From Kofleriaceae bacterium (GTDB lineage: Bacteria > Myxococcota_A > Polyangia > Haliangiales > Haliangiaceae), in contig JBGARE010000001.1 of NCBI GenBank assembly GCA_044230415.1, forward strand, positions 369,195-433,194: 64,000 bases of DNA, given 5' to 3'. The position numbers and the translations under genes were made by a program. The notes under the pieces are model-generated. The model was given only the letters and a program-made list of their open reading frames with translations, searched no databases and was not told where the DNA came from. Shown here piece by piece: positions 32,873 to 40,548 of the stretch. How positions within the stretch are numbered: the first letter of the stretch is position 1; every line of letters starts with the position of its first letter.

Positions 32873-35800
32873 ATGATCGGGGATCTCGAGCTGACGGTAT
32901 TGCAGGCGGCGCGGGGGGATCGGGGCTTCATCAACGCGTTCGCCGTGACCGATCAGATGGTCGTCGCGACCGGAGGGACGTCCACGACGGCCACGGTGAT
33001 GGCGTCGTCGAATGCGCGTCGCTACGAGCTGCGCACAACGCCGCGCGGGCTCGGGCTGCGCGATGCGCTCGCGGTCGGTGACGCGGTCTGGGTGTGCGGC
33101 GAATATGGCCAGCTCGCGGCCACGCGAGATCACGGCGAGACCTGGCGGTTCGTCGATGTCGGCACGGATCTATGCCTGTTCGGCCTCGCGCTCGGGACCG
33201 ATGGCGCGATCTGGTGCGTCGGTGACAACGGCTTCGCCGCGCGCATCCTCGGCGACAAGCCGGCGCGCGTCGACTTCGGCACGACCGCGCGACTCTCCGC
33301 GGTGTACGCGGTGCGCGACGAGATCTGCGTGCTCGGCTTCGACGGAAAGCTGCGCCGGTGGGCCGATGGAAAGATCACCGAGCTGAACACGGGCACCACG
33401 AAGCCGCTGACGGCGATGGCATGCACGAAGTCCGCGTGGATCGTCACGGGCGATGGAGGGTTCATCGGGCGCTCGCCGGATGGAACGTGGTTCTCCCGCG
33501 TGAAGGTCGACAGCGAGGTGGATCTCGAAGGCATCTCGACGCTGCGCGACGGTCGCGTGATCGTCGTCGGAGATCGCGGGACGATCCTCGTGTCCGCCGA
33601 CGAAGGGCGAACGTGGACCAGCGTGCCGAACCAGCTCGGCCTGGTGCACCTGTGGGGTGTCGAGCGATTCGGTGGTGGCGCCTTGATCGGCGGCGACGAC
33701 GGGCTCGTCGTGAAGGTCGCGCCTCCCGGCGACATGACGTGGGCCGATCACGTCGACGTGTTCGGCGGTCCGCGCGATCTCGATGCGCTGTTCGCCGCGG
33801 GTCCACAGGGCTTCATCGAGCGCAGCTTGTCGCTGTACCTGGCCGCGATCGAAGAGCACGTCGTCGACGAGGAAGAAGACGAAGGCGATGCCGACGACGA
33901 CGACGAAGATGATGATGACGACGACGACGACGATGACGACGCGGACGATGACGACGATGACGACGACGGAGACGAAGGCGACGAGCCGGGCGAGCAAGAG
34001 GTCGATGCGGATGACGACGAGCGCGGCCTAGAGGCGTCTGGCGGCGGCCGGCGAAGCAACGACGCGGGCTCGGAGAGCGAGGTCGACGAGGATGGAAACC
34101 CGGTCGACAACGAAGCGTTCGACACGCTCGCGGAGCCCGGCGATGCCGATGATTTCGCCGATATTTATGGTGTGCCGATGCCGCCCGAGGCTGTGGCATT
34201 CTGGTCGAAGATCGAGAACGCCGATAAATGGTCGTCGTTCGACGAGTTTCGCCTGGATAACGATATTCGACCGGACGTCGGCGAGAAGAACCTGTTCGAG
34301 CTGATGGTCCGGCGGAACCAGCAGGCCTATCTCGGGACGGATCTCGTGGAGGCGTTCTGCGGCGTGTTCGGCATCGGCTCGCAGGGCAACGGCGACACCT
34401 ATCACATGGAGATCTACGAGTGGGATGGTCCTCGTCAGGTCATCCACTTCGATCACGAGACCGCATCGTTCAGCGGAGTGTTCTCGGACTCGCTCGACAG
34501 CCTCGTGTACCTGGCGGCGATCGTGAAGGCCGGCGACGCGCACCTGATCTCGAAGGATGCGTACGAGCGCGGCATCCACGCGCTACGCGGGAAGGTCTCG
34601 CCGACATGGCACTTCTCGATCGACGAGAAGGACGCGAACTTCGTGCACCTCGAGCCGAAGCGTCGCGAGTCAGAGTTCTTCTTCTACCGTTCGCGCTGGA
34701 TCTGCGCGCTGCTCAAGAACGACGGTGTCACCGCGATCGAAGACATCCCCGAGCTGTTCCAGGCAGAGCTGAACCAGATCGTCCCGGCGGAGCAGCTGTC
34801 CGCGCGCTACGAGGCGTGCGAGAAGTTCATTCCGACGGCGCTGTACGCGACGTGGCGCGCGTATCTGTTCGACGAGCCGGAGCTCGATCGCTATCTCGAG
34901 ATCGCGCGCGCGCACGGGGCGCGGTTGGTGCGCGACGCCGCGAAGCTGATCGATGATCTGCGCGGGGGGCGTAACACGTTGGGAACGATCAAGGACGTTC
35001 GCGCGTGGCTAGCGGAGTTCCGCGCGCTCGATCTCGATCCGCGTGGCGAAGCGCTGCGCGCCGAGCGAGCCGCGAAGAAGGCGCAGGACGACGCGAAGCG
35101 AACGGCCGAGGTCACCGCGCAGCTCGCGTCCGCCGATCGCGACACGTGGGCCGATCTCGCGTGGAAGTGGATCGACGATGGTGTCGCGCATCGCGCGTTG
35201 CTCGCGAAGCTGAACGAGGACGACGCGGAGACGATCGTCGCGCTCGACGAGCTCGTCGCGCTCGACGAGGCGGAGCGAGCCGCGGTGATCCCGCGCATCG
35301 CAGCGAATCTGTCGCCGGAGCTCGAAGCGGTGCTGGTCGGCAGCGTGCTTCGCGATGACCCGCTCGCGGGCGTTGTCATGAAGCCGGATCCCGATGCGGG
35401 CGAGGAGCCGAAGAGCGAGGAGCCCGACGACGACGGCGAGGACAGCCCGGGGTGGAGTGCGATCGATAAAGCGCTCGCGACCCTCTACCCCGATCAGCAG
35501 CCGCAGCACTGGGGAACGATCCTGCCGTTCGGCCTCGGCGGAAACGATCCGCTCCCCGGACTCTCGGCCTACGAACGCAGCGAGCCGGTGCCGCACTGGC
35601 ACTTCGTGACGTACGGATTCACGGATCTGCACCACAAAGAGACCGACGATCCCGAGGAGAGTGGCTACGGGTTCGAGCTCACGCTGCGGATCGCGCGTGC
35701 CGCCGACGATCACGAGCCACCGACGTGGGCCCTCAACTTTCTGCAGAACCTCGGCCGCTACGTCTTCAACTCGGGCAACGCGTTCGCCCCGGGACACAAG

Positions 35801-40400: not shown

Positions 40401-40548
40401 CGCGATCGCCGAGGAATCGGACGATGACGACGATGACGACGATGACGACGATGACGACGATGACGACGACGACGACGACGACAGCGACGACGACGGCGAT
40501 GACGACGACGACGACGACGAGTCGAGTGACGACGAGGAAATGAACTAG
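37444..40548 (+). CDS. Acidic HEAT-repeat protein (1034 aa) with three poly-Asp/Glu tracts
   Basis: The start ATG overlaps the upstream stop (TGATG). HEAT/PBS-lyase-type repeats (…LGAIGDPAAIPAL…). Runs such as DDDDDDDDDDDDDEEDDEDED and EEEEEEEEEEEE; C-terminus DDDDDDDDDDDDDDDDDDDDSDDDGDDDDDDDESSDDEEMN*. Confidence 0.65.
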   Translation: MRIHGLEARHGETSFALLVLRFTEPASRAALTATIRQFAPIIPDADAFLDELPPDGEYEPFQVLGMPWLPPEAGSDVELQRRLIEAAAAHGVEEAWFFQASTGLPDISSDDDEPFAEDDAAVSTGVDAEAFMVEQTVDADAYTDDGTEGTQPVQIYPAPTDDDEDAEDVDDDDDDDDDDDDDDDEEDDEDEDYGDDDDEDDATWSHGPPPIVTSTRFPVDGYPAILEELDWEDFGIAFKLAGPALGGEGTMLVGFHALWLSPYGGRHRNAAVTIDRKHHAAHLWVDRFAVPSSAEEQVGHLLWILSKLDEIVPVIHARFGGASMQQKYGGMMGDTSEPFVLGGNPLLAVYASAGDSGVDAWIDAQKDWSPEEVAQMLRELAIEIVTSGDEDDDGEEIGDEDIEEAVDALFEDSDEDDGDREGDDDDALRTTRMPVLSVDDDGDTDSKRVAAAAGDELDDDVESVGGDADPNSRSERSVGHGEVDDDEDANDDDDEEEEEEEEEEEEVDDEDEVDDEVDDEDDEDDDDEADDDDDDDAEADRSRYIARYASEILVARAHAGLLDARVADTLRPILATAERYEHRRTSVIQILGALRDKASVPALVKVLETSAIKSMTDSITKEDLLAAASSALGAIGDPAAIPALTSVITQPTSHADDPRAPAAHALAACLAAAPEPRDVSDAVIDAMLKTIALRNDGELNAELHFAYGKLARTVSTARRDRMRARLAEEITSRTDGTPMLARAVAFTMAGDAKYDELRAGLHRALGEIDYNHEYTVRNIRFALRIAEHFPELVDTADLAWLVLFEEPDIRADAHALLEKLGAPIATALVFDPTVVGRLSDHELVRLLGEPHLIGRAALVAEAGRRELVAARSAIVKAAHAAIDRARPLGELLDPDSKLLEAAVRALREGELDAEVIALFDRMLRHANYHVKWELLQEPPDDDRLTGGMFVVLAAKWGWQHGTAKEWLTARQGSEVFEEERKRAGVTAIAEESDDDDDDDDDDDDDDDDDDDDDSDDDGDDDDDDDESSDDEEMN
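38926..38961 (+). repeat. (GAA)12 perfect trinucleotide microsatellite inside a CDS
   Basis: Direct reading. It is embedded in a longer GAC/GAT/GAA-rich tract at 38881-39060. Similar tracts lie at 33868-34020, 37921-38050 and 40414-40545. Confidence 0.85.

Follow-up and report, generated by a model that had tools for sequence, protein, structure and literature searches.

A conserved pair of giant SUKH/SUFU and HEAT-repeat proteins as a candidate cytoplasmic protein-binding scaffold of the Kofleriaceae

We analyzed a stretch of 64,000 nucleotides (nt) from a Kofleriaceae bacterium (assembly GCA_044230415.1, contig JBGARE010000001.1, positions 369,195 to 433,194 of the forward strand), here called the window, and focused on two long, overlapping open reading frames (ORFs) on its plus strand, ORF1 and ORF2. 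Judging from their sequences, we put the chances at about even that the two products form the subunits of a cytoplasmic protein-binding scaffold, either an adaptor or a sequestering complex, that is specific to the Kofleriaceae/Haliangiales and has been inherited vertically. Indeed, every recognizable module of the two proteins (propeller, SUKH, helical, SUFU, TPR and HEAT) is a protein-protein interaction domain, while Pfam and PDB profile searches and structure searches detected no catalytic domain in either ORF. In addition, the order of a PPC-domain gene, ORF1, ORF2 and a gene for a flavin adenine dinucleotide (FAD)-dependent enzyme is stable across 60 loci, which supports vertical inheritance. 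The window has a G+C content of ~67%, and ORF1 and ORF2 are the two long plus-strand genes that stand out by their codon-position G+C. Their features, given in window positions and in amino acids (aa), are as follows.

32873..37444, plus strand: ORF1, 1523 aa; propeller, acidic linker, SUKH domain, helical domain, acidic linker, SUFU cassette, acidic linker, TPR domain
32873..33832, plus strand: BNR/Ycf48-like beta-propeller, ORF1 aa 1-320, with PSII_BNR (28.4 bits) and PDB profile matches
33833..34147, plus strand: acidic disordered linker A, ORF1 aa 321-425; poly-Asp/Glu (D/E) core at aa ~331-372, GAC/GAN triplet array at 33865-33984
34148..34552, plus strand: divergent SUKH (SMI1/KNR4-superfamily) domain, ORF1 aa ~426-560, assigned by a transitive profile link and fold
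34553..35377, plus strand: helical domain, ORF1 aa 561-835; all-helical, strongly conserved, no Pfam family
35378..35443, plus strand: acidic linker B, ORF1 aa 836-857
35444..36517, plus strand: SUFU cassette, ORF1 aa 858-1215; a complete bacterial SUFU protein of ~350 aa, optional
36518..36580, plus strand: acidic linker C, ORF1 aa 1216-1236; triplet array at 36535-36582
36581..37441, plus strand: TPR domain with TPR_END_plus cap, ORF1 aa 1237-1523; candidate docking site for the ORF2 C-terminal tip
37431..37446, plus strand: coupling junction; Shine-Dalgarno AGGAGG within the last ORF1 codons (Q-E-G-N), then AAC TGATG with a one-base stop/start overlap
37444..40548, plus strand: ORF2, 1034 aa; N-terminal domain, acidic linker, middle alpha/beta domain, acidic linker, HEAT solenoid, acidic tail with conserved tip
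37444..37758, plus strand: alpha/beta N-terminal domain, ORF2 aa 1-105; predicted local distance difference test (pLDDT) ~95, no family match
37759..38052, plus strand: acidic linker 1, ORF2 aa 106-203; poly-D core at aa 159-201, triplet array at 37923-38052
38053..38607, plus strand: alpha/beta middle domain, ORF2 aa 204-388; beta-alpha-beta-beta-alpha-beta plus helices, no family match
38608..39063, plus strand: acidic linker 2, ORF2 aa 389-540; core at aa 483-540, triplet array at 38892-39063
39064..40398, plus strand: HEAT-repeat solenoid, ORF2 aa 541-985; HEAT_2/HEAT_PBS, an alpha-solenoid of ~450 aa
40399..40545, plus strand: acidic disordered tail, ORF2 aa 986-1034; acidic core at aa 992-1032, tip D-D-E-E-M-N-COOH at 40528-40545

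The gene junction and the interaction modules

A reading-frame check reproduced both ORFs, their lengths and their TGATG overlap as they had been given in the original prediction, an earlier note on this DNA. At the junction (...CAG GAG GGC AAC TGATG), the stop codon of ORF1 (TGA, 37442-37444) shares one base with the start codon of ORF2 (ATG, 37444-37446), and a Shine-Dalgarno sequence (AGGAGG, 37431-37436) precedes the overlap at a spacing of AGGAGG-N5-TGATG. This arrangement, a TGATG or TAGTG junction with an upstream AGGAGG, is kept in ~45 loci over an identity range of 40-85%. Because the Shine-Dalgarno sequence is embedded in its last codons, ORF1 has a nearly invariant C-terminus, ...W-H-A-R-Q-E-G-N. 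A conserved overlap of stop and start codons, with the ribosome-binding site lying within the upstream gene, is consistent with a translationally coupled pair, as had been claimed, and termination-reinitiation at the one-base overlap would yield ORF1 and ORF2 in a fixed proportion. A longer ORF2 starting at a GTG at 37387 was rejected, since orthologue alignments open at 'M/V-x-V-H-G-L-E' and the TGATG/TAGTG junction is conserved. Also consistent with the data is the proposed cytoplasmic location, as neither protein has a hydrophobic segment, a transmembrane segment or a signal-like N-terminus (Kyte-Doolittle maxima of 1.36 and 1.29; no dedicated signal-peptide predictor was used). Scans for promoters and terminators gave nothing beyond shuffle expectation.

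Profile matches confirmed the propeller, TPR and HEAT calls of the original prediction. The N-terminal segment of ORF1 matches PSII_BNR (Ycf48-like) at 28.4 bits against a cut-off of 27, and the PDB profile matches of this propeller include Ycf48/HCF136 and designed 'Cake' propellers, while NCBIfam TPR_END_plus matches aa 1462-1513 at 37 bits against a cut-off of 32. For ORF2, HEAT_2 scores 31.6 bits on the solenoid segment and is matched by 35 of 48 orthologues; sequence searches also matched this region to alphaRep and CpcE, and Foldseek matched it to PP2A-A and importins (E 4e-6 to 5e-4). The AlphaFold model of ORF2 has a mean pLDDT of 79, with values >90 in the folded parts. The N-terminal and middle domains had no Pfam match in any of the 48 orthologues and no PDB profile match was found outside the HEAT region, and in a Foldseek search with ORF2 solenoids filled the list of matches. 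The middle domain (aa 204-388) is the best-conserved part of ORF2 in the orthologue alignment.

The SUKH domain of ORF1 could be placed only by an indirect route. Taken in isolation, the block gave no direct match to PF09346, PF14568 or related SUKH profiles, even at a Pfam E of <=10, and a PDB search with the family profile of the block likewise gave no match. However, an exhaustive hidden Markov model search with the block profile retrieved 127 cluster representatives among 1.84 billion, and among 50 distant representatives, 21 match SMI1_KNR4 (PF09346, best 1.9e-8) and 9 match SUKH_6 (PF14568). In P0384, the sole member returned with coordinates, the Pfam match (aa 99-222) coincides with the match to the block profile (aa 102-238). 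In addition, ORF1 aa ~426-560 has the alpha+beta fold of the SUKH domain, and we regard it as a divergent member of the superfamily, at the level of fold and transitive homology only. In other words, the SMI1/KNR4 call of the original prediction did not survive the direct profile test, but stands at these two levels. The same note had named an absence of profile hits for its SUKH and SUFU blocks as evidence that would count against it; the SUKH block lacks a direct match, and the SUFU block has one.

The helical domain carries the motifs PTALYxxWR, RDAAxLIDELRxGRNxLGTI and FRALDLDPR, and always lies C-terminal to the SUKH domain, even in distant HEAT- or WD40-fused homologues. These distant homologues of the SUKH block retain the helical domain (consensus ALYWLWR...RDAAxL..EL..GR..LG.I.D) and carry HEAT repeats (13 of 50), WD40 propellers or MORN repeats in place of the Kofleriaceae modules. 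We therefore consider the combination of SUKH, helical domain and interaction repeats a wider, uncharacterized architecture. Within this wider superfamily (P0384-P0465), in which SUKH and the Pfam-less helical domain are fused to HEAT, WD40 or MORN, the genes are monocistronic and lie in unrelated contexts, and the contexts of two distant SUKH-helical-HEAT/WD40 homologues (P0401 and P0397) were heterogeneous and gave no functional clue. As a side observation, the helical domain of the window protein contains an 18-nt perfect tandem duplication (TCGTCGCGCTCGACGAGC x1.9; 35235-35269, ORF1 aa 789-794) that adds 'VALDEL'; a database protein that is otherwise identical to ORF1 (P0001) lacks those six residues, which points to a strain-level indel.

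For the SUFU block the call was direct, as PF05076 matches ORF1 aa 890-1053 over model positions 1-171 of 172 (E=1e-40; 139.9 bits, cut-off 25). Among structures, human and fly SUFU match the cassette at E 1e-30 to 1e-39 (human SUFU E~3e-39), and the human alignment spans the N domain, the inter-domain linker and the beginning of the C domain ('LRGRLLHGRHF' vs 'MRGRLRHGRPY'). For this second, C-terminal SUFU domain, PF12470 matches with an E of only 0.12, and the human alignment reaches as far as 'RGRLxHGR'. Stand-alone bacterial SUFU proteins of 343-365 aa from Actinomadura, Spirillospora, Lysinibacillus, Paenibacillus and Planctomycetota are colinear with the cassette over 92-96% of 365 aa, at 41-48% identity. 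We therefore interpret the cassette as a complete SUFU protein captured inside ORF1. Not every orthologue has it: at the same syntenic position, precisely aa ~850-1225 are missing in, for example, P0082/L004, P0094/L005, L013, L014, L033, L054, L059 and L063. In a neighbour-joining tree of the SUKH and helical domain, a rough tree built on a single domain, these SUFU-less forms appear both as outgroups and as tips scattered among SUFU-bearing clades, of which the simplest reading would be one gain and several losses. The captured unit, set between two linkers, may be an accessory arm. In animals, SUFU holds Gli, and the SUKH and SUFU domains of ORF1 may similarly act as generic clamps that hold a client protein, rather than neutralize a linked toxin.

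The closest stand-alone SUFU paralogues, from Kofleriaceae (P0232, P0229 and P0241, 52-53% identity), have C-terminal Lys/Ala/Ser-rich, histone-H1-like basic tails of ~70-190 aa, opposite in charge to the acidic linkers of the pair. The one stand-alone SUFU locus examined (L069, 8001-9722) lies beside the housekeeping genes rpsB, tsf, proS and tol-pal, with no toxins, and comes from a metagenome-assembled genome (MAG), BC1.218, that also has a fused, SUFU-less protein of the type C described below (L053).

Acidic tracts and the C-terminal tip of ORF2

The acidic tracts far exceed what composition alone would give, with a maximum of 35 (ORF1) and 36 (ORF2) D+E residues per 40-aa window, versus at most 21 and 25, respectively, in 1000 shuffles. 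They are encoded by imperfect GAC/GAT/GAA triplet arrays and are located solely at domain junctions or at the C-terminus of ORF2, where the AlphaFold model predicts the ORF2 tracts to be disordered (pLDDT 30-50). The original prediction had allowed for an assembly artefact, which is ruled out, as relatives with 80-85% identity, from independent assemblies, carry tracts at these sites that differ in length and sequence. Most ORF1 orthologues lack any 30-aa stretch with at least 70% D/E, and linker A, present in the nearest relatives, is absent or short in most others. The linkers of ORF2 vary among orthologues over 0-175, 10-233 and 4-43 aa, while their composition stays acidic (median D+E of 0.43-0.52, with almost no K/R). 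Because composition stays acidic while length varies, and because the coding sequences are triplet arrays, we propose that the acidity of the linkers is selected, whereas their extreme length looks like slippage-driven drift. The tracts would then be disordered linkers and a disordered tail, the length of which drifts fast through GAC/GAN slippage. A DNA mimic of the Ocr/ArdA type should present a folded, family-conserved carboxylate surface; these tracts are predicted to be disordered and are variable or absent in orthologues. Their absence or shortness in most orthologues speaks against a conserved role of the long tracts themselves as nucleic-acid mimics, as had been proposed.

The very end of the acidic tail, by contrast with its length, is constrained. 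The C-terminus reads D-D-x-x-[MIVTA]-N-stop in all 47 aligned ORF2 orthologues and at 41 of 42 canonical loci, typically as D-D-[DE]-x-[MIV]-N (DDEEMN in the window), and this tip is kept whether the preceding acidic tail has 4 or 70 residues. As the FAD gene overlaps the end of ORF2 at some loci, we considered whether the motif might be a mere by-product of this overlap. This was rejected: the tip persists where the FAD gene starts 50 nt to 4.4 kb downstream, and its Asp and Glu codons vary synonymously (GAC/GAT, GAG/GAA). We therefore conclude that the constraint acts on the peptide. None of the six fused type-C genes, which have no TPR-ended partner, has the tip.

The co-occurrence of tip and TPR suggests a way in which the two proteins could be joined. 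The EEVD-COOH terminus of Hsp70 and Hsp90 binds the TPRs of co-chaperones, and SSB also has an acidic C-terminal tip. The best PDB sequence match of the ORF1 TPR domain is the TPR domain of the co-chaperone SGT, a weak match (E=0.004), with Tom70 and Hop among further weak matches. In this weak alignment, R1424, N1428 and H1461, all three with a conservation of at least 90% within the ORF1 family, lie opposite a Lys, the Asn of 'GN' and the Asn of 'SNRA', which we take to be the carboxylate-clamp positions of SGT. By analogy, we infer that the acidic tip of ORF2 may dock into the C-terminal TPR of ORF1, where it would serve as a tether or gate between the subunits of a physical complex.

Distribution, architectures and neighbouring genes

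Protein searches identified ~100 orthologues of ORF1 (50-80% identity) and ~130 of ORF2, with very few exceptions in MAGs of the Kofleriaceae or Myxococcota. A GTDB scan in which each species was represented by a single genome yielded the 60 loci, labelled as Kofleriaceae, Haliangiales, Myxococcales or 'Deltaproteobacteria' MAGs, barring a few evidently mislabelled bins. We mapped the architectures domain by domain with tblastn across all loci. Type A, the majority, to which the window belongs, consists of the PPC protein, the propeller-SUKH/helical-SUFU-TPR protein, the N-middle-HEAT protein and the FAD enzyme; type B is the same without SUFU. Type C is a single propeller-SUKH/helical-HEAT protein with neither the partner gene nor the FAD gene (L003 with two tandem copies, L053 and L056-58), and two further proteins, P0071 and P0086, are propeller-core-SUFU-HEAT fusions. 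The fused HEAT regions are 41-51% identical to ORF2 aa 541-980 in P0071, P0086 and the L003 genes, and 31-37% in L053 and L056-58. Following domain-fusion (Rosetta-stone) logic, the covalent joining of an ORF1-type core to an ORF2-type HEAT region in other lineages is evidence that the two window proteins act together. The tandem paralogues of L003 (10001-13849 and 13984-17733, on a contig that also carries L047) encode 1282 and 1249 aa, both ending in ...ALDWLSEVSA, and are followed by a gene for a 744-aa protein without Pfam matches; the Actinomycetota label of this MAG is probably a binning or label error.

In the window, the FAD-dependent protein (40908-42500, plus strand; PF21688 FAD-depend_C, HI0933-like, DUF8436) is 73-91% identical in relatives. 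The gap of 360 nt between ORF2 and this gene holds a small proline-rich ORF on the minus strand (40559-40915), and a 91-aa gene lies at the same place in the 80%-identical locus L001 (17638-17913). Upstream of ORF1, two PPC-domain proteins of 1179 and 557 aa (27516-31055 and 31137-32810, plus strand) are weakly similar to each other; such genes precede ORF1 in most related loci, at 55-89% identity and sometimes with 2-6 kb of inserted genes in between. Further upstream, a minus-strand gene (21550-26181) encodes a 1543-aa protein without Pfam matches that is not homologous to ORF1 or ORF2. Its aa 1371-1467 weakly match the PADLOC profile CARF5--CARF_ADA (E=1.6e-5), and this is presumably the protein that the original prediction had called the 'ADA giant'. 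Another minus-strand giant (9861-14447, 1528 aa) has a weak HEAT_2 match only (E=9e-4) and no BLASTP similarity to ORF2. Paralogy of the pair with the other giant ORFs of the window was rejected for lack of BLASTP similarity. Homology between the ORF1 and ORF2 families was also rejected, as hhalign gave one spurious match of 87 columns at 10% identity. A PADLOC match to WGR_XIII (E=1.9e-5) is of the generic HEAT type and was rejected as evidence of a defence system.

Competing explanations and known systems

The original prediction had viewed the pair as an immunity-type decoy against nucleic-acid-targeting effectors: SUKH and SUFU would neutralize incoming nuclease-type polymorphic toxins, and the polyanionic tracts would mimic nucleic acid to soak up effectors. 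Myxobacteria are rich in contact-dependent toxins, and both domains are really present in ORF1. Moreover, SUKH and SuFu are two widespread immunity scaffolds of polymorphic toxin systems, SUKH+SuFu fusions exist, and immunity genes also occur as orphans without a linked toxin gene (Zhang, Iyer, Aravind 2011, PMC3113570). However, SUKH/SuFu immunity genes are defined by toxin linkage, tandem divergent arrays and sporadic spread (PMC3113570), and because the pair shows none of these features of context, the immunity reading is not supported and we rate it as improbable. Looking for toxin genes beside the homologues, as had been proposed, we found no toxin, nuclease, Rhs, contact-dependent inhibition (CDI) or defence genes within +/-10 kb in the window (Pfam and PADLOC scans), and none in the gene tables of five annotated related loci, save an unrelated PemK at the edge of one locus. 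Neither BLASTP in the window nor the locus map gave any sign of tandem arrays or paralogue expansion, and the pair occurs in one taxonomic family with a synteny that is stable across 60 loci, which is not the behaviour of a variable cassette. At a given locus, SUKH, SUFU and the other modules have similar identities, and we therefore see no arms-race signature; in an arms race, SUKH and SUFU would diverge faster than the domains that flank them. In addition, SUFU has been lost repeatedly, and is missing in several sub-lineages, while the pair persists, the long tracts are absent in most orthologues, and the neighbours of the clade's stand-alone SUFU paralogue are housekeeping genes.

Two other explanations start from parts of the locus that the scaffold proposal treats as secondary. 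The pair might be an assembly, regulatory or localization factor of the downstream FAD-dependent oxidoreductase, with ORF1, ORF2 and the FAD gene as one operon and one functional unit. Wherever a canonical locus includes downstream sequence (37 loci), the FAD gene lies 3' of ORF2 in the same orientation; at ~21 of these loci, the two genes overlap or are less than 100 nt apart (in one clade the start of the FAD gene overlaps the last ~40 nt of ORF2). The FAD gene is never found beside the fused, partner-less type-C genes. We nevertheless consider this unlikely: the window and its nearest relatives have a gap of 340-460 nt that holds a small opposite-strand ORF, other loci have one to several kb inserted, the upstream PPC genes are equally syntenic, so that the arrangement may be plain ancestral gene order, and the FAD enzyme family is probably widespread in bacteria without the pair. 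Alternatively, the functional core could be the polyacidic tracts, which would act as a polyanionic sponge or as a chaperone. Their polycationic partners might be histone-H1-like Lys/Ala-rich tails, nucleoid proteins, polyamines or divalent cations, and the folded domains would give specificity only. The net charges of ~-146 (ORF1) and ~-201 (ORF2), the acidity held at every linker position across the family and the basic tails of the SUFU paralogues all speak for such a role. On the other hand, tract length ranges from 0 to >200 aa, many orthologues have no tract of 70% D/E over 30 aa, the tracts are placed exactly at domain junctions like ordinary linkers, their triplet-array coding suggests neutral slippage, and no basic partner is known to be co-inherited with the pair, which together leave this idea doubtful at best.

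The notion of a scaffold protein pair, which the original prediction had also put forward, fits the data, while several points weigh against it. The label 'scaffold' is generic, and genes that stay side by side within a single bacterial family may do so simply through common descent. The two ORF2 domains without recognizable fold relatives (aa 1-105 and 204-388) could hide a catalytic activity. With respect to the proposed docking, locus L040 is the sole canonical locus without the tip, the TPR domain resembles clamp-type TPRs only weakly (E=0.004), with a His in place of one clamp Asn and the Lys/Arg of the third repeat not placed, and a termination-context effect on '...N-stop' is conceivable, as ORF1 also ends in Asn (QEGN). 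A more specific version of the scaffold reading is a long shot: the pair would be a sequestration machine resembling the SUFU-Gli tether of animals, a co-translated heterodimer that keeps one or more clients inactive in the cytoplasm (a regulator, or a polycationic, H1-tailed protein such as the SUFU paralogues of the clade), with the tip and TPR as latch and the polyanionic linkers as electrostatic bait. If true, it would define a new, widespread adaptor superfamily of SUKH, helical domain and repeats in multicellular-type bacteria, unrelated to toxin immunity.

Several known systems bear comparison with the pair. The SUKH/SuFu immunity proteins (PMC3113570) belong to the same two superfamilies and have versatile protein-binding clefts, and a single polypeptide with SUKH and SuFu has been described. 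Those proteins are, however, small, stand-alone, toxin-adjacent, sporadic and arranged in tandem divergent arrays, whereas here the domains are parts of a repeat-rich protein of 1523 aa with a HEAT partner, stable synteny in one family and ordinary evolutionary rates. Eukaryotic SUFU, the tether of Gli/Ci (PDB 4bl9 and 4km8), resembles the cassette in its alignment (E~3e-39), its cytoplasmic setting and the interaction modules around it, and by this analogy a holding or sequestering role is plausible for the cassette. Unlike its eukaryotic counterpart, the cassette has no equivalent of the disordered insert of metazoans, forms part of a larger protein, is not known to have a Gli-like client, and is nearer to bacterial SUFU of ~350 aa (41-53% identity). 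The stand-alone bacterial 'suppressor of fused domain proteins' (~345-365 aa) share its colinearity but are single-unit proteins, whereas the ORF1 unit sits between acidic linkers and the Kofleriaceae paralogues have basic, H1-like tails.

ORF2 invites two further comparisons. Like the ligands of the EEVD-COOH binders Hop, SGT, Tom70 and CHIP, and like SSB with its tip DDDIPF-COOH, it has a disordered acidic leash that ends in an invariant acidic/hydrophobic tip; this tip occurs exactly where the TPR-ended partner does, and SGT is the best PDB sequence match of that TPR. It differs from these systems in the tip itself (DDEDMN in this comparison), in clamp residues that are only partly conserved, in a docking that is putative, and in having no chaperone or ssDNA-binding domain. 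The C-terminal solenoid of 450 aa is like that of HEAT scaffolds such as the PP2A A subunit, importin-beta, the phycobilin lyases CpcE/MpeQ and alphaRep, but ORF2 has no lyase or phosphatase partner, and adds two unclassified alpha/beta domains and acidic linkers. Our literature searches found no paper on such Kofleriaceae proteins, and PMC3113570 is silent on fusions of SUKH to TPR, HEAT or WD40.

What is new, then, is that SUKH/SuFu adaptor proteins occur in a conserved, toxin-free candidate scaffold of two subunits, in which the SUFU cassette is optional and tip and TPR may form a latch. The impact is moderate, as the family is confined to uncultured Kofleriaceae. Still, a SUKH or SuFu domain in a bacterial protein is taken almost by default as a sign of toxin immunity, and this pair, which is conserved, syntenic, apparently coupled and toxin-free, is a clear counter-example. 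SUKH and SuFu have client-holding adaptor roles in eukaryotes (PMC3113570), which the setting of the two domains in this pair resembles. For the Kofleriaceae, the pair offers a natural experiment in the gain and loss of a whole, linker-flanked SUFU cassette, a family-wide example of polyacidic linker expansion by triplet slippage, and a specific short linear motif, the acidic tip of ORF2, with a candidate receptor in the TPR of ORF1.

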